Shown here in pieces: positions 2,474-28,650 of a stretch of DNA of 29,596 bases; the first letter of the stretch is position 1, and each line of letters begins with the position of its first letter. The translations under genes and the position numbers were made by a program. The stretch is taken from the NCBI GenBank assembly GCA_964486475.1, contig CAZALZ010000013.1, positions 1 through 29,596 of the forward strand. The letters run 5' to 3'. The notes beneath the pieces are model-generated. The model was not told the origin of the DNA. It did no database searches and worked only from the letters and a program-made list of their open reading frames with translations. Origin of the DNA: an uncultured Gammaproteobacteria bacterium (GTDB lineage Bacteria > Patescibacteriota > Patescibacteriia > Patescibacteriales > WJLG01).

Positions 2474-3562
2474 ATGAATTTAAATGATTTAAAACAAATT
2501 AAAAAGCTGGATCCGGGCTGTTTGGCCGAATCTTTGGCTTTGCTGCCGGAGCAGATAAAGAGCGTTCGTTCTGAAGCTGAAAAAATAAAATTTCCAGCTG
2601 ACTATGCCGAAATTGACGAAGTTGTTGTTTTTGGCATGGGCGGATCAAATCTCAGCGCCAGAATTATCTCTTCGCTTTTTAAGGATGAATTAAAAGTGCC
2701 GCTGATTATCGCTCCCGGTTATGATGTTCCGGGTTTTGTTGATAAAAAAACTCTTTGCATTTTGTCTTCTTATTCCGGCAACACCGAAGAAACTTTGTCT
2801 GTTTTGCCGGAAATAAAGAAGAGAAAAGTAAAGATTGTCGCGATCGGTGCGTCTTTGAAAGACAGCCTTTTGAAAGAGTCGGCTGAGAAGGATAAAATTC
2901 CAGGTTTGTTTTTTGATTCTTCCGCCAACTATTCAAACCAGCCCCGCGCCGGTTTGGGATATTCTTTGTTCGGATTGCTGTCGATATTGTTGAAGATTAA
3001 GGTTTTAAAAATAAGTTCGGCGGAAATGGATTCAGCCGCCAAAAAAGCGCAAGAGGCGTCCGTATCTTTTGATACAGAGGCCAAAAACAATAAAGCTAAA
3101 GTTTTGGCGGAGAAAATTTCCGGTCAAGGTGTTGTTATTTTGGGCGGAGATTTATTGGAAGGAAGTTTCCACGCCTTAAGAAATCAAATCAATGAGAATG
3201 GCAAAAATTTTTCCACTTATTTGGTTCTGCCGGAAATGAATCATTATGCCTTGGAAGGATTGTCCTTTCCGGCGGCAATCAAAAAGGAATTGATATTTTT
3301 GGCGTTTAATTCTGATTTGTATAATAGCCGCATAAAACAAAGACTTGAATTGACCAAAAAGGTCATAAAGAAAAACGGTTTTCGTCTGGTTGAATATTCT
3401 TTGTCCGGCAGGAATAAATTGGAGCAAGCGGCGGAGATGCTGGCGTTCGGCGGCTGGCTTACTTTTTATCTGGGGATTTTAAACGGTGTTAATCCGTCGC
3501 TGATACCTTGGGTTGATTGGTTCAAAAAAGAATTGAAAAAGAATAAAAAAACCGGCAATTAA
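2474..3562 (+). CDS. SIS-domain bifunctional phosphoglucose/phosphomannose isomerase-like protein
   Basis: GMGGSNLSA and SSYSGNTEETLS SIS motifs, about 360 aa. Start moved to ATG 2474 (MNLNDLKQ...) because the track start at 2429 lies inside the alaS terminator. Confidence 0.65.
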   Translation: MNLNDLKQIKKLDPGCLAESLALLPEQIKSVRSEAEKIKFPADYAEIDEVVVFGMGGSNLSARIISSLFKDELKVPLIIAPGYDVPGFVDKKTLCILSSYSGNTEETLSVLPEIKKRKVKIVAIGASLKDSLLKESAEKDKIPGLFFDSSANYSNQPRAGLGYSLFGLLSILLKIKVLKISSAEMDSAAKKAQEASVSFDTEAKNNKAKVLAEKISGQGVVILGGDLLEGSFHALRNQINENGKNFSTYLVLPEMNHYALEGLSFPAAIKKELIFLAFNSDLYNSRIKQRLELTKKVIKKNGFRLVEYSLSGRNKLEQAAEMLAFGGWLTFYLGILNGVNPSLIPWVDWFKKELKKNKKTGN

Positions 3563-6029: not shown

Positions 6030-8402
6030 TTATTTTTTTCTCTTTTCAACCTTCAGCACATTCATCGTTGTATCAATCACGGTATCAGGGATTAGAGAAA
6101 TGGAATCGATTTTTTCTTTGACCAGAAATTCCACGAAATCCGGGAAGTCGGACGGAGCTTGTCCGCAAATGCCGACTTTAGTTTTGGTCTTCTTGGCGAT
6201 GCGGATCAGCTCTTTTATTAAAACCTTAACGGCATCATTTTTTTCATTGGAAATTCCAGCCACGCCGAGCATGCTGCCGGAATCGCGATCAATTCCAAGA
6301 GTAAGCTGAGTTAAATCATTGGAACCGATAGAAAAGCCGTCAAATTCTTCAGCGAATTGGTCGGCTAAAATTATATTTGCCGGAATTTCGGCCATGACGT
6401 AAATTTGCAAACCGTCTTTGCCGCGTATCAAGCCGCGTTTAGCCATAAGTGCTTTTACTTTTTGGCCTTCTTCTACCGTGCGGCAGAAGGGGATCATTAT
6501 TTTTAAATTTTTCAGCCCCATTTCTTGGCGGACTTTTTTCATGGCTTGGCATTCCAAATCAAAAGCCGGGATGAATTTTGGCGTGTAATAACGGTTTGCG
6601 CCGCGCCAGCCGATCATCGGATTGGATTCTTTCGGTTCGTATTGCGCGCCGCCGATTAGGTTGGCGTATTCGTTGGTTTTAAAATCCGACAGACGGATGA
6701 TGCAATCTTTAGGATAAACCGAAGCGGCGATCATGGCTACGCCTTCGGCCATTTTTTCCACGAAAAATTGTTTCTTGTCTTTGTGGCCGATTGTAATTTT
6801 ATCTATTTGCGCTTTAATCGTCGCCGGCTGTTTGGCGTAATTTATCAAGGCCAGCGGATGGATTTTGATATAGTTGTTGATGATAAATTCCAAACGCGCC
6901 AAACCGATGCCATCATTCGGGACAAAGGAAGTGGCAAGCGCCATATCCGGTTCGCCGACATTCATCATTATTTTTGTTTTAGGCCGTTTTAGATTTTTAA
7001 TGTTTGATTTGATTATTTTAAAAGGTAATATTCCTTTATAAACAAAACCGTTTTCTCCCTCGGCGCAAGAAACTGTTACGCTTTGCCCGCTGGAAAGCTT
7101 GGTAGAGGCGTTATTGGCTCCGACCACGCAAGGTATCCCGAGCTCGCGCGAAACGATCGCGGCATGGCAAGTCCGCCCGCCTTTATCAGTAATGATGGCT
7201 GAAGCTATTTTCATAATCGGCTCCCAATCCGGATCAGTCATGTCGGTTACTAAAACTTGTCCCGGCTTAAATGATTTTATTCCAGAAACTTCCATAATGC
7301 GGTTAACAATACCGGCGCCGACTTTATTACCGACCGACTGGCCGCTAACCAAAATTTCGCTGCGCTTGTTGATTTTGTATTTTTCCACGATATTGTAATC
7401 GCGCTGGCTTTGCACGGTTTCCGGTCTGGCTTGGATGATATAAAGTTTGCGGGTGCGGCCGTCCATAGCCCATTCCATATCCATTGGTTTATTGTAATGT
7501 TTTTCGATCTCTATTGCCCAATCTGCCAATTTTAAAGCTTCGGCATCGGTGATGGATTGTTTAATGCGTTCTTCCGCCGGAACGGAAATATTTTTAACAG
7601 GGTTGTCGCGGCTGTTATTATATATCATTCTTAGATCTTTTTTCCCGATTTTTTTAGAAATAATGGCGCGCGTCGGCTTGAAGACTAAAAATTCATCAGG
7701 ATTAACTCGTCCTTGCACGATATTTTCACCCAAACCGTAGATGGAGTGGACTAAAACCGTATTTTTAAAGCCGGACTCGGTGTCAATGGAAAACATTACC
7801 CCGGAACAGCCCGTATCCGCGCGGACCATAGTTTGCACGCCGACCGATAAAGCTATTTTAAAATGATCAAAACCTTTGTCGGCGCGATAGGAAATGGCGC
7901 GGTTGGTGAAAAGAGATGCAATGCATTCCTTGACCGCCTCCAAGAGCTGGCGCTCGCCGCGGATATTTAAAAAAGTTTCCTGCTGGCCGGCGAACGAAGC
8001 GTCCGGCAAATCTTCGGCCGTAGCCGAGGAGCGGACAGCTACATCCAAAACGCTGCGTTTTTCTGATTTGCAAAGTTTTTTGTAAGAAGAAACAATCTCT
8101 TTTTTTAATCCTTCCGGCAACTCCGCTTTTAAAATGGCGGCGCGGACTTTTTTGCCGTGATCCATTAGATTGGTTACGTTTTTCGTGTTTAAAGTTTTTA
8201 GAATTTTTTTAATATCCGTTTTTAAGCCGGTTTCCTCCATAAAAAAATTATAAGCTTCGGCCGTGGTGGCGAAGCCGTTGGGAACAGCGATTTTTTTCTT
8301 GGCTAACAAAGAATACATTTCTCCCAGAGAGGCGTTTTTCCCTCCAACCTGCGGCACGTCTTTAATGCGAAGCTCGCTAAAAAATTTAATGAATTTAGAC
8401 AT
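6030..8402 (-). CDS. ppsA: phosphoenolpyruvate synthase (pyruvate, water dikinase)
   Basis: 790 aa. N-terminus VGGKNASLGEM, phosphohistidine swivel motif GGRTCHAAIVSRELGIPCVVG, C-terminal PEP-utilising TIM-barrel motifs (FSIGSNDLTQ). Confidence 0.93.
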   Translation of the reverse strand: MSKFIKFFSELRIKDVPQVGGKNASLGEMYSLLAKKKIAVPNGFATTAEAYNFFMEETGLKTDIKKILKTLNTKNVTNLMDHGKKVRAAILKAELPEGLKKEIVSSYKKLCKSEKRSVLDVAVRSSATAEDLPDASFAGQQETFLNIRGERQLLEAVKECIASLFTNRAISYRADKGFDHFKIALSVGVQTMVRADTGCSGVMFSIDTESGFKNTVLVHSIYGLGENIVQGRVNPDEFLVFKPTRAIISKKIGKKDLRMIYNNSRDNPVKNISVPAEERIKQSITDAEALKLADWAIEIEKHYNKPMDMEWAMDGRTRKLYIIQARPETVQSQRDYNIVEKYKINKRSEILVSGQSVGNKVGAGIVNRIMEVSGIKSFKPGQVLVTDMTDPDWEPIMKIASAIITDKGGRTCHAAIVSRELGIPCVVGANNASTKLSSGQSVTVSCAEGENGFVYKGILPFKIIKSNIKNLKRPKTKIMMNVGEPDMALATSFVPNDGIGLARLEFIINNYIKIHPLALINYAKQPATIKAQIDKITIGHKDKKQFFVEKMAEGVAMIAASVYPKDCIIRLSDFKTNEYANLIGGAQYEPKESNPMIGWRGANRYYTPKFIPAFDLECQAMKKVRQEMGLKNLKIMIPFCRTVEEGQKVKALMAKRGLIRGKDGLQIYVMAEIPANIILADQFAEEFDGFSIGSNDLTQLTLGIDRDSGSMLGVAGISNEKNDAVKVLIKELIRIAKKTKTKVGICGQAPSDFPDFVEFLVKEKIDSISLIPDTVIDTTMNVLKVEKRKK

Positions 8403-8410
8403 AAGTAAAG

Positions 8411-8469
8411 GTAATATGCAGCAAGTAGTATGTAGTATGGGACGCCATACCGCACAAACTATTCCACTG
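8411..8469. repeat. heptad-repeat hairpin element, copy E1 (between the DUF4870-like gene stop and the ppsA start)
   Basis: GTAATATG-CAGCAAG-TAGTATG-TAGTATG-G-gacg-CCATAC-CGCACAAACTATTCCACTG. The core stem is GTATGG/CCATAC. Its left arm is close to copy E4 (ATGCAGCA.G.TAGTATG). Confidence 0.6.
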
Positions 8470-8475
8470 TTTATA

Positions 8476-8796
8476 TTATATTTTTATTTTTTTGCTCCAA
8501 TCGTTAATATAGGGGACTTCCCAGTATTCGCCGGCCAAGACTTTTAATATTCCTATGACCGAAACGATCAAAACAGCCAATCCAATTATTTGTCCAAAAA
8601 AAGGGAACCAGGAAACAAGACTTATAATAAAAAGCACCAATCCTTGTTTGGCGTGGAATTGGCAGAATTTGGAATCTTTTTTTGTTAAAAGCGGAATCAG
8701 AAACAATATCCAAACATAAGAAAGAGCGGCGGAGTGTTTGTTGTTTTCCGCGTCTTTTTTTTCCATAGCAGATAAAACTTTTTTTTCTCTGGGCAT
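8476..8796 (-). CDS. small membrane protein, DUF4870-like
   Basis: MPREKK...AALSYVWILFLIPLL...FHAKQGLVLFIISLV... has two or three TM segments and the HAKQ motif typical of that family. Start moved to ATG 8796 because the track start (8880) overlaps tRNA-Leu. Confidence 0.6.
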   Translation of the reverse strand: MPREKKVLSAMEKKDAENNKHSAALSYVWILFLIPLLTKKDSKFCQFHAKQGLVLFIISLVSWFPFFGQIIGLAVLIVSVIGILKVLAGEYWEVPYINDWSKKIKI

Positions 8797-8811
8797 AGAA
8801 TTGATTTTTAG

Positions 8812-8840
8812 TTGATTATTTGTTATCTTTATATTACTAT
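8812..8840 (+). promoter_or_regulatory. candidate promoter for tRNA-Leu (TTGATT-17 nt-TACTAT)
   Basis: The -35 is at 8812-8817 and the -10 at 8835-8840, 10 nt before the tRNA 5' end. Confidence 0.4.
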
Positions 8841-8850
8841 AGCATAAATT

Positions 8851-8932
8851 GCGGACGTGGTGAAATTGGTATACACGCATGCCTTAGGAGCATGTGGGGC
8901 AACCCATGAGAGTTCAAGTCTCTCCGTCCGCA
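8851..8932 (+). tRNA. tRNA-Leu (anticodon UAG), long variable arm
   Basis: Acceptor GCGGACG/CGTCCGC. D arm GTG..CAC. Anticodon stem CATGC/GCATG with loop CTTAGGA gives TAG. Variable arm TGGGGCAACCCATGA. T arm GAGAG-TTCAAGT-CTCTC. Discriminator A; only CC follows, so the CCA is not fully encoded. Confidence 0.9.
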
Positions 8933-9790: not shown

Positions 9791-9819
9791 TTGATTTTTT
9801 ATAATATTTTAGTTATTAT
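9791..9819 (+). promoter_or_regulatory. candidate promoter for tyrS (TTGATT-17 nt-TATTAT)
   Basis: Hexamers at 9791-9796 and 9814-9819. AT-rich context. Confidence 0.35.
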
Positions 9820-9846
9820 TAAGTAAAATAGTAATAATTAAAATAT

Positions 9847-15302: not shown

Positions 15303-15329
15303 TTAGCACTCTTGACAATAGAGTGCTAA
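15303..15329 (+). promoter_or_regulatory. CIRCE operator (HrcA binding site), perfect match to consensus
   Basis: TTAGCACTC-TTGACAATA-GAGTGCTAA equals the consensus TTAGCACTC-N9-GAGTGCTAA. It ends 18 nt before the hrcA ATG. Confidence 0.92.
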
Positions 15330-15347
15330 TTGAGATATTATGGTGTT

Positions 15348-16055
15348 ATGGATAGAAAACATCAAATACTTGAAGCTATTATTAAAGAACACATCGCATC
15401 CGGCACGCCGGTCGGGTCTTCTGTTTTGGTGGAAAAATGCGGCCTGGATTGCTCACCGGCAACCGTGCGCAATATTATGGTTGAATTGGAAGAAGAAGGG
15501 TTAATCATGCAACCGCACACATCAGCCGGACGCGTGCCGACCGAAGCCGCTTATAACCTATTTATAGAAGAACTGAAAAACGGCCAGCGTAAATTGAAAA
15601 AAGCGCGCGAAAAAGAGCTGAAAGAATTGGATGATAGTTTTTCCGGAGAGGATGAAACAGCCATGCGCGAAACAGCCAAGGCTTTGGCGGCTCTGACCAA
15701 TTCCGCGGTTTTCTGGGCTTTTCATAAAAATAATTTGTATTATACCGGTTTGTCCAATCTTTTTTCCCAGCCGGAATTTATAAATTCCGGTTTGGTCTAT
15801 AATGTTTCAGCGGTGATCGATCGGATGGACGAAATTATTGATTCTATTTTTGAAAAAGTCTCGAGTTCGCCAGGGGGCGGAGCGCAAGTTTTTGTCGGCG
15901 AAGAAAATCCGTTCGGCAATTTCTGCGGTTCTGTTATTGCCAAGTATCGCCTCGGAAATCAAACCGGACTGTTCGGGATTCTCGGACCGATTAGAATGGA
16001 CTATGAGAGGAACTTGGGGCTGGTGGAATATATACTTAATAAGTTGAGGAAATAA
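15348..16055 (+). CDS. hrcA: heat-inducible transcription repressor HrcA, short form (235 aa)
   Basis: N-terminal wHTH (ILEAIIKEHIASGTPVGSSVLVEKCGLDCSPATVRNIMVELEEEGLIMQPHTSAGRVPT) and C-terminal GILGPIRMDYERNLGLVEYI. Start set at ATG 15348 (the track start at 15330 is a TTG abutting CIRCE). Confidence 0.88.
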   Translation: MDRKHQILEAIIKEHIASGTPVGSSVLVEKCGLDCSPATVRNIMVELEEEGLIMQPHTSAGRVPTEAAYNLFIEELKNGQRKLKKAREKELKELDDSFSGEDETAMRETAKALAALTNSAVFWAFHKNNLYYTGLSNLFSQPEFINSGLVYNVSAVIDRMDEIIDSIFEKVSSSPGGGAQVFVGEENPFGNFCGSVIAKYRLGNQTGLFGILGPIRMDYERNLGLVEYILNKLRK

Positions 16056-16079
16056 TTTTTATTATAATAACTGAAAAAA

Positions 16080-16150
16080 GAAAAATGAAATGTGAAAAAT
16101 GAGTAAAGATAAAATTTTTATCATTTTTCATGTTTCTTGTTTCATATTTC
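16080..16150 (+). other. long AT-rich imperfect hairpin between hrcA and grpE
   Basis: The inner arms TGAAAAATGA (16093-16102) and TCATTTTTCA (16121-16130) are perfect. The outer arms GAAAAATGAAA (16080-16090) and TTTCATATTTC (16140-16150) have one mismatch. It ends 7 nt before the grpE ATG. Confidence 0.6.
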
Positions 16151-16157
16151 AAAAGCT

Positions 16158-16628: not shown

Positions 16629-16638
16629 ATAAATATTT

Positions 16639-16707
16639 GTAGCAGGTAGTATGTAGTATGCAGTATGGAATCTAGACCATACTACTTACTACATATTCCA
16701 TACTACC
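16639..16707. repeat. heptad-repeat hairpin element, copy E2 (grpE stop to hsp20 start)
   Basis: TAGCAGG TAGTATG TAGTATG CAGTATG G-aatctaga-C CATACTA CTTACTA CATATTC CATACTA CC. The outer arms GGTAGTATG (16645-53) and CATACTACC (16699-707) are a perfect 9 bp. The inner arms AGTATGG/CCATACT give 7 bp. Confidence 0.75.
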
Positions 16708-16715
16708 AAAATTAT

Positions 16716-17147
16716 ATGCCTAATTTAATTAAATGGAGTCCATTTTTCGACGGGTTCGAAGATATGGACAAAATGTTTTCCGAATTTGTGCCGGTTGTCA
16801 GACGCGGCGACGCTGGCGGGTTTGTTCCGGCTATCGACGTCTATGAAGACAAAGGCAATCTGATCGTGGAAACGCAATTGGCCGGAATCGATCCGGAAAA
16901 AGTTTCCATCGCCATTGAGAATGATGTTTTAACCATCAAGGGCGAGAGCGAAAAGAAAAGCGAAGTCGAGGATAAAGATTATTATAGAAAAGAAATTAGG
17001 CGCGGTTCGTTTTTCCGCACGATCCAGTTGCCGGCCCATGTTGATGGCGATAAAGCTTCGGCCATTTCCGAGTCAGGTATTTTGAAAATTTCTATCCCGA
17101 AGCGGGAAGAATCCCAACCAAAAACAATTAAAATTGAAAAAAAATAA
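16716..17147 (+). CDS. Hsp20/alpha-crystallin family small heat-shock protein
   Basis: Alpha-crystallin domain: PAIDVYEDKGNLIVETQLAGIDPEKVSIAIENDVLTIKGE...RGSFFRTIQLP...GILKISIPK. Start at ATG 16716; the track extension translates the hairpin. Confidence 0.9.
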   Translation: MPNLIKWSPFFDGFEDMDKMFSEFVPVVRRGDAGGFVPAIDVYEDKGNLIVETQLAGIDPEKVSIAIENDVLTIKGESEKKSEVEDKDYYRKEIRRGSFFRTIQLPAHVDGDKASAISESGILKISIPKREESQPKTIKIEKK

Positions 17148-17150
17148 TAT

Positions 17151-17220
17151 TAGCTGTTGGCAATATGTAGTATGTAATATGGAATTTAAACTATACACCA
17201 TACTGCATATCCCATGCTAC
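17151..17220. repeat. heptad-repeat hairpin element, copy E3 (hsp20 stop to dnaK start)
   Basis: TAGCTGTTGG CAATATG TAGTATG TAATATG G-aatttaaa-CTATACA C CATACTG CATATCC CATGCTA C. GTAGTATG (17167-74) pairs with CATACTGC (17199-206), and TAGC (17151-54) pairs with GCTA (17216-19). Confidence 0.7.
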
Positions 17221-17234
17221 AATTATAAAATTCT

Positions 17235-19154
17235 ATGAGTAAAATATTAGGAATCGACCTAGGAACAACTAACAGTGCCATGGCCATAATCGAAGGCGGA
17301 GCGCCTAAGATTCTGGAGAATGCCGAAGGAATGAGAACAACTCCTTCCATTGTCGCAATCTCTAAATCCGGCGAATGGCTGGTTGGCGCTGCGGCTAAAC
17401 GTCAGGCTGTCACCAATCCCGAGAACACCATCTTTGAGATGAAACGTTTGATCGGCCGTCACTTCAATGACGAAGAAGTTCAGCGCGATTTGAAGAATAT
17501 GCCTTACAAGATCGTGCAGGCCGGAGAAGGCGTGAAAATCATTGTTTCCGGAAAAGAATACACTCCGCAGGAAATTTCTGCCAAGGTTTTGGCGAAATTG
17601 AAAGCTGATGCTGAAGCTCGTTTGGGCGAAAAAATTACCGAAGCGATCATTACTGTTCCGGCTTATTTTGATGATTCTCAAAGACAAGCCACTAAGGATG
17701 CTGGTCAGATCGCCGGTTTGAATGTTAAGCGTATCATCAATGAGCCAACCTCAGCCGCTTTGGCTTACGGTTTGGACAAGAAGCACGGCCATCAAATCGT
17801 TGTCTACGATTTGGGCGGCGGAACTTTTGATGTTTCCATTCTTGATGTCGGCGGCGATAGCGTTATGGTTAAAGCAACTAATGGCGACACTCATTTAGGC
17901 GGCGCGGATTTTGACCAGCGCGTTATCAATTGGATTTTAGAAGAATTCCGCAAAGAGGAAGGCGTCGATCTTTCCAAAGATCCGTTGGCTTTGCAGAGAA
18001 TCAAGGAAGCGGCCGAGAAAGCCAAGATCGAATTGTCTTCTTCTATGGAGACAGAAATCAATCAGCCGTTCATAACTGTTGGTGCTGAAGGTCCGAAACA
18101 TTTAGTTAAAAAAATGACTCGCGCGAAATTGGAAGAGTTGGTCGGCGATTTGGTCGAGAAAACCATTGAGCCTTGCAAAAAGGCTTTGACCGATGCCGGT
18201 TTGAAAGTGGAGGATTTGGAAGAAGTTGTTTTGGTTGGCGGTATGACTCGTATGCCAATGGTGCAAAAATTGGTTAAAGACTTCTTTAAGAAAGAACCGA
18301 ATATGTCGGTTAATCCGGACGAAGTGGTTGCAGCTGGCGCCGCTGTTCAGGGCGGTGTCTTGCAGGGTGATGTTAAAGATATTTTGCTTTTGGATGTTAC
18401 TCCGTTGACTTTAGGTATTGAAACTTTGGGCGGCGTGGCCACTCCATTGATTGAACGCAATACCACTATCCCGACTCAAAAATCGCAAATATTTTCTACC
18501 GCAGCTGATTCTCAGACCAGCGTGGAAATCAAAGTCGTTCAAGGCGAACGCCCGATGGCGGCTGACAATAAAGTCCTGGGCAATTTTATGCTCGACGGAA
18601 TTCCGCCGGCTCCTCGCGGCGTTCCACAGGTTGAAGTTAAATTCGACATTGACGCTAACGGAATTCTGAATGTTTCCGCGATGGACAAAGCTTCCGGTAA
18701 AACTCAGAATATTACTATCACTGCTTCTTCCGGACTTTCCAAGGAAGAAGTGGAGAAGATGAAAAAAGAAGCTGAAGCGCACGCCGAGGAAGACAAGAAA
18801 AAGAAAGAAAAAATAGATTTGAAGAATCAGGCCGATGCCGCGGTTTTCCAAACCGAGAAATTGATCAAAGATATGGGCGCGAAAATGTCGCCAGAAGATG
18901 TCAAAACTTTGACCGACCATGTTGAAGATTTGAAAAAGATCAAAGACGGTGATGACATTGAAGCGATCAAAAAGAAATTGGAAGAAATGAACCAGGCTGC
19001 GCAGACCATCGGCGGGAAAATGTACCAATCCGCCCAGGGCGGACAAGCAGCCGGCGCTCAACCGGGAGCTGAACAAGCTGGCGCCGAACAACCAAAGTCC
19101 GAAGATAAAAAAGACGAAGGCCCAGTTGAAGGTGAATACGAGGAGAAAAAGTAA
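17235..19154 (+). CDS. dnaK: molecular chaperone DnaK (Hsp70)
   Basis: [29 protein letters not shown] and the other canonical Hsp70 signatures; 639 aa. Confidence 0.97.
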
Positions 19155-19165
19155 TTTTCTTATAG

Positions 19166-19197
19166 ACCAACTTTTATCTTTTGATAAAGGTTGGTTT
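19166..19197 (+). terminator. terminator after dnaK
   Basis: ACCAACTTTTATC-tttt-GATAAAGGTTGGT is a 13-bp stem with one mismatch/wobble, followed by a short TTT. Confidence 0.6.
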
Positions 19198-19212
19198 GCT
19201 AAGAAAGTTAAT

Positions 19213-19236
19213 AATTCCCCTCTCAAGAGGGGAATT
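19213..19236. repeat. palindromic repeat element copy B (intergenic, perfect 24-bp palindrome)
   Basis: AATTCCCCTCT-ca-AGAGGGGAATT, 5 nt before the ATG at 19242. Confidence 0.8.
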
Positions 19237-19241
19237 AATTT

Positions 19242-21372: not shown

Positions 21373-21444
21373 GTAGCATGCAGCAGATAGTATGGTATAT
21401 GGTTTTTGCAACCGCCATATTACATGCCGCATATTCCATACTAC
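21373..21444. repeat. heptad-repeat hairpin element, copy E4 (DUF3467 stop to dnaJ start)
   Basis: GTAGCATG CAGCAGA TAGTATG GTATATG G-tttttgcaaccg-CCATATTA CATGCCG CATATTC CATACTA C. The outer arms GTAGCATG/CATACTAC match 7 of 8. The inner arms ATATGG/CCATAT give 6 bp. It ends 4 nt before the dnaJ ATG. Confidence 0.7.
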
Positions 21445-21448
21445 AAAA

Positions 21449-22525
21449 ATGAGTAAAGATTATTATAAAATTTTAGGAGTGGAAAGAAGTGCCGGCGCTG
21501 ATGAAGTCAAGAAGGCGTTTTTAAGGTTGGCTCATGAATATCATCCCGATAAGACCGGCGGCGACGATGCGAAATTTAAAGAAATTAATGAGGCCTACCA
21601 AGTTTTGGGAAATAAAGAAAAACGCGCGCAATATGATCAATTCGGCTCGGCGGGACCGAACATGGGAGGATTTGGCGCCGGTCGAGGATTTGGCGGTTTT
21701 CAGGGTGGAGGAATGAATATTAATATGGATGATCTGGGTGAAATGTTCGGGGGATTCGGGGATATTTTCGGTTTTGGCTCTTCTCGCTCTAGTCGCGGAA
21801 AATCAAGGCGCGGAGCAGATATCGAAGCTGAACTGACCGTTGACTTTGAAGAAGCGGTTTTCGGCGCGGAAAAGGAAGTTTCTTTGCGTAAAAAAATAAT
21901 TTGCGATCGTTGCCATGGTTCCGGCGCCGAGCCAGGAGCGAAAATGGAAAACTGCTCCACTTGCGGCGGACGCGGGAGGATTCGTTATGTCCAACAAACC
22001 ATTTTGGGTGATATTCAAACCGAAACCACTTGCCGCGCCTGCAACGGCGAAGGAAAGATTCCTTCTCAGAAATGCGCTAAATGCCACGGGAGCGGGGCAA
22101 TTAATGACAGTGTTAAATTTAAAGTTAAAATTCCGGCCGGCGTGGATGATGGCGGACGCATCCGCTTAGCCGGTTATGGCGAAGCCGGAGATAAAGATGC
22201 CGGTGCCGGTGATTTGTATTTAAATATCCGCGTGCGCCATAGTTCCAAATTTGTCCGAGAAGATTATGATATTCTTACTAAAAAAGAAATAACTTTTACT
22301 CAGGCGGCCTTGGGTGATAAAGTGGAAATTGAAACCATCCACGGTAAAGTGGAGTTGAAAATCCCGGAAGGCACTCAGTCGGGAACGGTTTTCAAATTAA
22401 AAAATAAAGGGATTCCGCATATCGGCAGTAAAATTACGGGCGATCATTTGGTGGAGATCATAATTAAAACGCCTAAAAATTTAACTGGTAAGCAGAAAAA
22501 AACTTTAAAAGAATTAAACATTTAA
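21449..22525 (+). CDS. dnaJ: molecular chaperone DnaJ (type I)
   Basis: J domain (DYYKILGV...YHPDK), G/F-rich region, four CxxCxGxG zinc-finger repeats (CDRCHGSG, CSTCGGRG, CRACNGEG, CAKCHGSG). Start at ATG 21449. Confidence 0.95.
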   Translation: MSKDYYKILGVERSAGADEVKKAFLRLAHEYHPDKTGGDDAKFKEINEAYQVLGNKEKRAQYDQFGSAGPNMGGFGAGRGFGGFQGGGMNINMDDLGEMFGGFGDIFGFGSSRSSRGKSRRGADIEAELTVDFEEAVFGAEKEVSLRKKIICDRCHGSGAEPGAKMENCSTCGGRGRIRYVQQTILGDIQTETTCRACNGEGKIPSQKCAKCHGSGAINDSVKFKVKIPAGVDDGGRIRLAGYGEAGDKDAGAGDLYLNIRVRHSSKFVREDYDILTKKEITFTQAALGDKVEIETIHGKVELKIPEGTQSGTVFKLKNKGIPHIGSKITGDHLVEIIIKTPKNLTGKQKKTLKELNI

Positions 22526-28596: not shown

Positions 28597-28650
28597 ATGA
28601 GTATAAAACTAAATTTTAAAATTTAAAATTGTGATTTGAGATTTTCAAGT

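Follow-up and report, generated by a model that had tools for sequence, protein, structure and literature searches.

We analysed a 29,596-nt stretch of DNA (contig CAZALZ010000013.1; hereafter the window) from the genome of a low-G+C member of the Patescibacteria (Candidate Phyla Radiation, CPR), in which spacers between the heat-shock genes hrcA, grpE, hsp20, dnaK and dnaJ hold copies of a hairpin-forming element built of tandem heptanucleotides (heptads). Four copies, termed E1–E4, lie in the window, and on balance we favour the view that they belong to a dispersed family of intergenic palindromes in Patescibacteria, similar to repetitive extragenic palindromic (REP) sequences and built of heptanucleotide arrays. 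Since members of this family are dispersed between many kinds of genes in related Patescibacteria, we do not regard the hairpins as a heat-shock switch. The genes concerned, recognised by their Pfam domains, and the four copies are located as follows:

6030–8402, minus strand: gene for pyruvate phosphate dikinase/phosphoenolpyruvate synthase (PPDK/ppsA)
8410–8469: E1, with one of its two arms decayed, lying between the MamF-like gene and PPDK/ppsA (start at 8402, minus strand)
15330–16055: hrcA
16158: ATG of grpE
16639–16707: E2, the best-preserved copy, filling the grpE–hsp20 spacer
16716–17147: hsp20
17153–17220: E3, a more degenerate copy in the hsp20–dnaK spacer
17235–19154: dnaK
21373–21444: E4, the copy in the spacer between a DUF3467 gene and dnaJ
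21449–22525: dnaJ

A covariance model with three heptads per arm finds exactly four copies in the window, each an imperfect palindrome of 60–72 nt with three to four tandem heptads per arm, reading GYAGYAD on the left and the complement on the right (50.9 bits for E2, 38.5 for E3, 33.4 for E4 and 17.8, E=0.034, for E1). Tandem Repeats Finder (TRF) reports period-7 arrays at 8425–8439, 16121–16151, 16638–16667 and 17162–17185, and the window contains the heptad TAGTATG 10 times where 0.97 would be expected, a count reached in none of 100 shuffles. The left arm of E2 (GTAGCAG GTAGTAT GTAGTAT GCAGTAT GG) is joined by an 8-nt loop, AATCTAGA, to the right arm (CC ATACTAC TTACTAC ATATTCC ATACTAC C); GGTAGTATG and CATACTACC pair over a perfect 9 bp, and AGTATGG and CCATACT over 7 bp. 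This copy starts 10 nt past the grpE stop, ends 8 nt short of the hsp20 ATG, contains 4.3 copies of the period-7 unit according to TRF and folds at −27.0 kcal/mol (z −4.05). E3 and E4 share its design with more substitutions: E3 starts 5 nt past the hsp20 stop and ends 14 nt short of the dnaK ATG (−22.8 kcal/mol, z −3.14), and E4 starts 2 nt past the stop of the DUF3467 gene and ends 4 nt short of the dnaJ ATG (−22.5 kcal/mol, z −2.18). E1 lies 7 nt upstream of the ppsA start on the minus strand, where there is no stress gene; its ppsA-side arm is intact and its distal arm degenerate, with z of only −1.4 to −2.4. Because the right arm is the mirrored complement of the left, either strand can form a 21–28 bp hairpin, and because the element is a palindrome, plus and minus strands score alike under the covariance model (for E2, 50.9 and 44.9 bits). 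An initial annotation of this DNA had described four mirrored heptad hairpins, the 9-bp and 7-bp pairings of E2 and the distances to the hsp20, dnaK and dnaJ start codons; the model, the TRF arrays and the TAGTATG count bear out the first, and the pairings and distances proved exact.

Outside the window, the covariance model and pattern scans together yielded about 40 further copies in Patescibacteria contigs (loci other than the window are given L numbers). The model finds those in L130, L176, L157, L148, L111, L040, L087 and elsewhere at E values of 1e-5 to 1e-13, with just two weak matches in 673 kb of unrelated genomes (E 0.03 and 0.47), each containing the seed 15-mer; a degenerate scan returned no match in 820 kb of control sequence and none of opposite chirality. 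Scanning metagenomes with a specific two-arm pattern gave 43 loci, 29 of them true members. A 14-base pattern applied to genome contigs was too unspecific, the only real copies among at least 120 loci listed being those in L087 (a Patescibacteria metagenome-assembled genome (MAG), between an rfbA-like gene and a glycosyltransferase gene), L040 (a Saccharibacteria MAG) and L111 (a Peribacteria MAG), and the remaining loci served as a negative control. No match was found in a scan of viral contigs. Chance matches to the search pattern in L131, L132, L135, L144, L145 (e.g., 3300–3400), L156, L158 and L171 came from another conserved sequence, GGAAATGTAGCGTTGTAGTATGTTGTATGGTGCTACTACATACTACAA; these contigs have about 50% G+C, the single labelled one (L131) is from a human gut metagenome, and the sequence has no Rfam match. 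Literature searches gave no relevant description of the unit sequence of E1–E4 or of such repeats in the CPR, and no Rfam family matched: at E ≤ 1 it finds only two tRNAs in the window, and at the gathering score only tRNAs in five related loci.

Across the family, the left-arm heptads have a nearly invariant core followed by more variable positions: G1 in 101 of 102, Y2 (T 83, C 17), A3 in 102 of 102, G4 in 100 of 102, Y5 (T 71, C 29), A6 in 92 of 102 and D7 (T 64, A 23, G 13), with the right arm as the mirror. There is a single chirality, the GTAG arm coming first and the CTAC arm second, and the flanks (T-rich on the left, A-rich on the right) lengthen the palindrome, no direct-repeat flanks being seen. 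None of 32 placed copies is inside an open reading frame (ORF); the neighbouring genes are co-directional for 18 copies, divergent for 3 and convergent for 1 at most, and the gap to the start codon is mostly 1–17 nt. Copies were thus found only in non-coding spacers and abut start codons because they typically fill the whole gap between co-directional genes. The start-adjacent genes encode PorA, GatC and MurB (two each), glycyl-tRNA synthetase (GlyRS), PheT, tryptophanyl-tRNA synthetase (TrpRS), RecR, PPDK, a GT2 glycosyltransferase, a DD-carboxypeptidase, a PD-(D/E)XK nuclease, a pilin, a DUF167 protein and several unknowns, as well as the folding and protease proteins GroES, DnaK, ClpP and cyclophilin and, through L157, GrpE. 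The family is clearly not a stress regulon. In L141 (45–133), groES is preceded by a family hairpin together with a canonical AGGAGG Shine–Dalgarno (SD) sequence, and it is the only element-adjacent gene observed with a clear SD.

The same heat-shock spacers were compared in syntenic loci gathered through Hsp20 homologues, which keep the order hrcA-grpE-hsp20-dnaK...dnaJ; close homologues come under the labels Patescibacteria, Parcubacteria or Falkowbacteria in their sources, and two Logan contigs carry the same sequence as the window. Hsp20 identity to the window is 92% in L123, 91% in L127, 88% in L130, 83% in L176, 74% in L174 and 72% in L175. By covariance model and spacer inspection, L123, L127, L174 and L175 contain no family copy, and this patchy absence in relatives as close as L123 and L127 shows fast turnover. 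L130 and L176 have heptad hairpins made of other or drifted units in these spacers (GTAGCTG in hrcA–grpE, after hsp20 and before dnaK; ACAAATT/ACAATTT in grpE–hsp20), and family copies precede dnaK in L157 and L176, L157 having a further one in hrcA–grpE. Palindromes resembling MITEs (miniature inverted-repeat transposable elements), with ends TTTGTCATTGCGAGG / TTTGTCATCCTGAGCGAAGG ... GGATGACAAAA and unrelated to the family, sit in heat-shock spacers of L127 (8637–8763, 9778–10001 and 10432–10651) and L157 (3411–3548) where the window has heptad hairpins. In the hrcA–grpE spacer of L174 (9215–9260) there is a perfect palindrome, G+C-rich and with GTAG at its start and CTAC at its end (TGTAGGAACAGGGCATTGCCCTGTTCCTACA), which resembles a classical GTAG-tagged REP more closely than the heptad elements do. 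Altogether, six of eight related genomes have some strong hairpin in the hrcA–grpE spacer, of unrelated sequence, and relatives with spacers of 2–18 nt have none.

Other observations were made in these neighbourhoods. In L174 (11440–11490), dnaK is preceded at a distance of 10 nt by four CGTTAYG heptads, direct and not inverted, where the window has E3. Upstream of dnaK in L130 (11552–11704), a duplicated dnaK 5′ fragment (ATGTCAAAAATATTAGGTATCGATTTAGG) is followed by inserted G+C-rich sequence, which suggests a past insertion or rearrangement at this dnaK start. Small DUF559/MTES_1575 (Vsr-like endonuclease) genes, absent from the window, are dotted through the heat-shock neighbourhoods of relatives and often adjoin G+C-rich CACACCCCG...CCCCTCT...AGAGGGG repeats:

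L127, 14321–14713: DUF559/MTES_1575 gene
L130, 2356–2739 and 14080–14436: DUF559/MTES_1575 genes
L174, 13531–13893: DUF559/MTES_1575 gene
L176, 9792–10178 and 11409–11618: DUF559/MTES_1575 genes

Stem energies across the copies range from −16 to −38 kcal/mol, and the two arms co-vary. In a fixed-phase alignment, 87.1% of cells pair compared with 80.2% when partners are shuffled, and 52 cells show changes on both sides compared with 20.4 in shuffles (none of 500 reaching 52), figures to be read with the caveat that the alignment is engineered and the arm pairs were picked for best pairing; this was the check for compensatory changes that the initial annotation had proposed. Swapping heptads within an element reduces pairing (p=0.0004); this test and the fixed-phase alignment replaced a first cross-element complementarity test that was confounded by heptad phase. 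The transcribed strand carries no signature of its own: sense RNA is stabler than antisense in 10 of 29 copies with known transcribed strand (Wilcoxon p=0.30), G-U pairs are not in excess (53 sense vs 58 antisense), and the 5′ and 3′ arms relative to gene direction are equally conserved (p=0.25, 31 copies), so that a better conserved start-proximal arm, hinted at by the ppsA and porA pairs, was dropped. Array length changes by whole units, L136 and L148 being identical over the whole locus save for one added GTAGCAG. Several spacers are occupied in more than one species, namely those of ppsA (window and L169), dnaK (window, L157 and L176), gatC, porA and murB. Same-spacer copies are each other's nearest relatives, as vertical inheritance would have it, only for porA.

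Hairpins built of other heptads accompany the family. Inverted tandem pairs of period 7 number 25 in 256 kb of loci, against 0–3 for periods 5, 6, 8, 9 and 10, and 10 of the 25 consist of unrelated heptads such as CGTATTT (L087 and L150), ACAAATT, GAAAAAT and TGTATTA. In L164, L170 and L155, hairpins of other units sit between a terminator and a TTGACA box, and because of this placement they are probably not always transcribed. Two features of the AT-only type were recorded in the window:

16072–16151: AT-only heptad hairpin (GAAAAAT / TTTTTCA type) in the hrcA–grpE spacer, ending 6–7 nt before the grpE ATG
28610–28630: TAAAATT ×3 array (TRF period 7, 3 copies), a possible further AT-type heptad array, in the spacer between the arginyl-tRNA synthetase (ArgRS) and GlyRS genes

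The first, an AT-only hairpin that the initial annotation had correctly placed 7 nt before the ATG, is itself heptadic (TRF period 7, 4.4 copies; scored as an inverted period-7 pair) and folds at −24.9 kcal/mol (z −4.93). The ArgRS–GlyRS spacer forms no strong hairpin (minimum free energy (MFE) −4.1, z 0.0). A perfect 18-bp AT-only hairpin, ATATTTTAGTTATTATTA / TAGTAATAATTAAAATAT, at 9804–9846 ends exactly at the start codon of the tyrosyl-tRNA synthetase gene, right after a canonical terminator.

Candidate transcription signals were located upstream of hrcA and after dnaK:

15303–15329, plus strand: perfect CIRCE (controlling inverted repeat of chaperone expression) operator (TTAGCACTC-N9-GAGTGCTAA) directly upstream of hrcA
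15312–15341: best sigma-70-like promoter of the region (TTGACA-18-TATTAT; 11 of 12 in the promoter scan), overlapping CIRCE
19155–19237, plus strand: two very stable hairpins after dnaK (together −42.9 kcal/mol, z −9.62)

The operator is a single match with 0 mismatches (0.01 expected) and the sole one in the window at ≤3 mismatches; CIRCE thus occurs only at hrcA, as previously annotated, and in none of E1–E4. Given this perfect match at the hrcA promoter, control of the hrcA operon would be explained by the CIRCE/HrcA operator. A terminator-like site was scored at 19212–19237, and the post-dnaK hairpins are likely to mark the end of the hrcA-grpE-hsp20-dnaK transcription unit. Their outer sequences, TTTTCTTATAGAC...TTTGCTAAGAAAG and CCCCTCT-N-AGAGGGG, recur after dnaK in L123 (13513–13734) and L127 (12993–13324), and may represent a terminator or RNA module that has been conserved, or else a further family of repeats. 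Genuine terminators in the window consist of a G+C-rich stem followed by a U tract; E2–E4 have no U tract, score no terminator-like site and have A-rich right flanks, and were rejected as intrinsic terminators. A promoter within the element was likewise rejected: CATACT and TAGTAT resemble a −10 box, but the 7-nt phase cannot yield a 16–18 nt spacer and the scan returned no site.

The remaining genes of the window encode tRNA synthetases, glycolytic enzymes, a pilin and hypothetical proteins, with no transposase among the window proteins. The MamF/MmsF-like membrane protein gene beside E1 (8476–8880, minus strand, stop at 8476), whose product Pfam missed, is real, having 58–78% identity to homologues in L123 and L169; the 134-aa ORF as listed runs into a tRNA-Leu gene only through an over-long start call, homologue alignment placing the start near residue 29. 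Because only 4 of the window's 27 protein genes have an SD-like motif (AGGA/GGAG/GAGG) ahead of them and upstream regions are A/T-rich, the sequence suggests that initiation is mostly SD-independent there. The missing SD was therefore dropped as a special trait of element-adjacent genes, SD use being low throughout the window.

We interpret these observations as follows. Arrays of the family gain and lose units in 7-nt steps, for which replication slippage would be the mechanism, and either hairpin-templated correction or selection for pairing would keep their arms complementary. In this clade, the spacers of the hrcA-grpE-hsp20-dnaK...dnaJ cluster appear to be long and permissive, gathering palindromes of several unrelated families, and three copies would fall within 5 kb because these spacers are unusually long. 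A co-transcribed copy would form a very stable stem-loop without a U tract and have only a generic intercistronic effect, for instance as an exonuclease barrier, a target of double-strand RNase or a translation decoupler. Such a generic role is plausible by analogy with Bacillus subtilis, where cleavage in the hrcA–grpE spacer uncouples HrcA from the remainder of the dnaK operon (PMC11313650). The generic REP-like repeat that the initial annotation had listed as an alternative is thereby supported by the dispersed intergenic copies, and its intercistronic processing or stability hairpin survives as a possible generic effect, without the transcribed-strand signature. Several points weigh against a plain repeat family. 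Genes for folding and protease proteins (GroES, DnaK, GrpE, ClpP and cyclophilin) make up 5 of about 29 neighbours outside the window, so that of the scatter without stress bias foreseen as counting against a stress role, the scatter was found and the lack of bias less cleanly; this share (about 1/6), counted over contigs, may be a modest excess over the genome share. Genes flanking the shared spacers are only 41–46% identical at four-fold degenerate sites in four closer species pairs, and because the same spacers are occupied despite this divergence, long retention, homogenisation or targeted reinsertion is indicated, so that the copies persist for longer, or reinsert in a more targeted way, than would be expected of plain junk, with the caveats that the metagenome loci were selected with a family-specific pattern and that same-spacer copies are mostly not each other's nearest relatives. 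Furthermore, neither an enzyme that would mobilise the element nor a way for it to spread between loci was identified, and an RNA-level role may be selected at particular loci.

A heat-shock-specific cis-regulator, whether a translational RNA thermometer or an operator array for a stress regulator, had been proposed at the outset on the placement of three of the four window copies and the AT-type hairpin in heat-shock spacers near start codons, and copies in other contigs do precede dnaK, grpE, groES and clpP; we nevertheless regard it as very improbable. The SD or AUG that ROSE (repression of heat-shock gene expression) or fourU-type thermometers hold in a stem is not sequestered here, the AUG lying 4–14 nt 3′ of the E2–E4 stems and hsp20, dnaK and dnaJ having no SD-like motif upstream to mask. 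Stems of E2–E4 are predicted to stay folded above 65 °C, with an MFE of −13 to −16 kcal/mol at 55 °C and 19–25 pairs left at 75 °C, so that they would not melt in the physiological range, and predicted accessibility of the start region climbs only gradually with temperature; on these models the element would not be a temperature sensor. Against both versions, most copies precede housekeeping genes, the same spacers lack the element or have it replaced in close relatives (L123, L127, L174 and L175 being without it), the element contains no promoter-like site, and CIRCE already explains control. The initial annotation's view that the element is neither CIRCE, HAIR (HspR-associated inverted repeat), a CtsR box nor ROSE is upheld: no CtsR box (RGTCAAA-NAN-RGTCAAA) or HAIR (CTTGAGT-N7-ACTCAAG) lies in the elements, 3-mismatch matches being at or below chance, and there is no Rfam match. 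Less improbable, though still unlikely, is an intercistronic RNA element under selection, in which the 21–28 bp stem acts as a processing or stability determinant of the hrcA-grpE-hsp20-dnaK transcript (an RNase III-type target or 3′-exonuclease barrier) and sets differing levels of repressor, co-chaperone and DnaK from one promoter. E2 and E3 do lie inside an apparent operon whose one strong promoter is that at CIRCE and which has terminator-like hairpins nowhere but after dnaK; the covarying arms, the strong hrcA–grpE hairpins of unrelated sequence in six of eight related genomes and the B. subtilis cleavage also fit. Against these stand the absence of a G-U or stability excess on the transcribed strand, the relatives that manage without a hairpin in 2–18 nt spacers, the occurrence of the family at many unrelated genes and in divergent spacers, and the hairpins of other heptads between terminator and promoter.

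The elements could instead be arrays of sites at which a sequence-specific factor recognises GYAG with a 7-nt period, either a ring protein resembling HutP or TRAP, which would bind the 5′ arm and melt the intercistronic stem and thereby alter operon stoichiometry, or a Y1-type nuclease resembling the REP-associated tyrosine transposase (RAYT). This would account for the nearly invariant G-Y-A-G core with variable positions 5–7, for the single chirality, for a unit shared by dispersed loci within a genome and differing by lineage (GTAGTAT in the window, GTAGCTG in L130 and L176), and for shared spacers despite near-saturated synonymous divergence; HutP sets a precedent for NAG every 7 nt (PMC2425495), and RAYT cleaves the GTAG tag of REPs (PMC3733652). 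We nonetheless hold such a factor to be improbable. Co-resident hairpins have unrelated units without AG or GTAG (CGTATTT, ACAAATT and GAAAAAT), each of which would need its own factor, arms and strands show no asymmetry, and GTAG is here paired and repeated, with no unpaired tag and with arms that are not self-palindromic. A tblastn search of 308 kb with IS200 TnpA, YafM and HutP sequences as queries gave chance matches only (E ≥ 0.6), detecting neither a RAYT gene nor a HutP homologue, and neither the window proteins nor the annotated neighbours include a Y1_Tnp domain, the window proteins containing no transposase either. A Patescibacteria-wide system with the hairpins as its cis-sites, in which such a ring protein sets operon stoichiometry or a RAYT-like nuclease copies and homogenises the arrays, is equally improbable. 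We retain the dispersed family of heptad-built palindromes as our preferred reading.

For annotation, this reading avoids recording a dispersed repeat as a heat-shock regulator, the regulatory site at the locus being the CIRCE operator. More generally, although Patescibacteria genomes are very small and compact and have few spacers, several heptad-hairpin families are kept there, and some occupy matching gene junctions in species that diverged deeply. Should the hairpins act on mRNA processing or on the coupling of translation, they would offer cheap, evolvable tuning of operon stoichiometry where regulators and SD use are scarce; if they are purely selfish, 7-nt slippage and the maintenance of palindromes could be studied on them in a clean natural setting. 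There is a practical side as well: because a perfect 9-unit GTAGTAT array in L040 (5905–6022) abuts an N run, long arrays of the family seem to break or mask assemblies.

Among known systems, the three NAG triplets bound by HutP in the hut terminator hairpin of B. subtilis have a spacing of exactly 7 nt (PMC2425495). The left arm likewise presents G1 Y2 A3 G4 in three to four units, giving at least three NAG at a 7-nt period in and beside a hairpin. In the HutP case, one regulatory site goes with its cognate protein and an intrinsic terminator, whereas the present family has dozens of dispersed copies and no U tract. Direct repeats of the TAACTGA heptamer occur upstream of start codons in Beggiatoaceae, cyanobacteria and Bacteroidetes (MacGregor 2015, PMC4679880). 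They too have 2–6 units ending a few nucleotides before start codons, at genes mostly without an SD and with no functional pattern downstream; in contrast to our elements, they are one-strand direct repeats oriented to the gene, and the heptad hairpins have a mirrored partner, a stable stem and no orientation bias.

REPs and the REPINs related to them are dispersed, strictly extragenic hairpin palindromes, mostly between co-directional genes, and RAYT cleaves the GTAG tag that their unit carries (Di Nocera et al. 2013, PMC3733652). The heptad family shares the dispersal, the extragenic position mostly between co-directional genes and hairpin formation at high copy number (counted over contigs), the GTAG motif, a long doublet-like hairpin, a patchy distribution across relatives and plausible co-transcription as an RNA hairpin. 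It departs from them in its unit: a REP is a 20–40 bp palindrome with one unpaired GTAG at its end, whereas here no such unit was found, GTAG recurs every 7 nt paired with CTAC, and each arm is non-palindromic, the left nearly free of C and the right nearly free of G.

The tandem heptanucleotide repeats of Calothrix are the short tandemly repeated repetitive (STRR) sequences. Heptanucleotide repeats are over-represented in bacteria, those of Calothrix being cited among them (PMC4692102), and Xanthomonas genomes hold 70–75 convergent pairs of intergenic GGGAATC heptamer arrays whose lengths vary between species (Rehm et al. 2015, PMC4692102). Here, too, tandem 7-nt units, typically about four per array, form two convergent arrays per intergenic spacer with stem-loop potential, array length varies among close relatives (by one unit between L136 and L148) and the neighbours have no functional theme. 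The differences are that the Xanthomonas unit is G-rich and ours (GYAGYAD) A/T-rich and hence without quadruplex potential, and that our family has Patescibacteria hosts, several unrelated heptad units side by side and very short spacers filled up to the start codons. The Xanthomonas GGGAATC pairs are thus the closest counterpart in architecture, and the GTAG-tagged REPs and REPINs the closest in biology.

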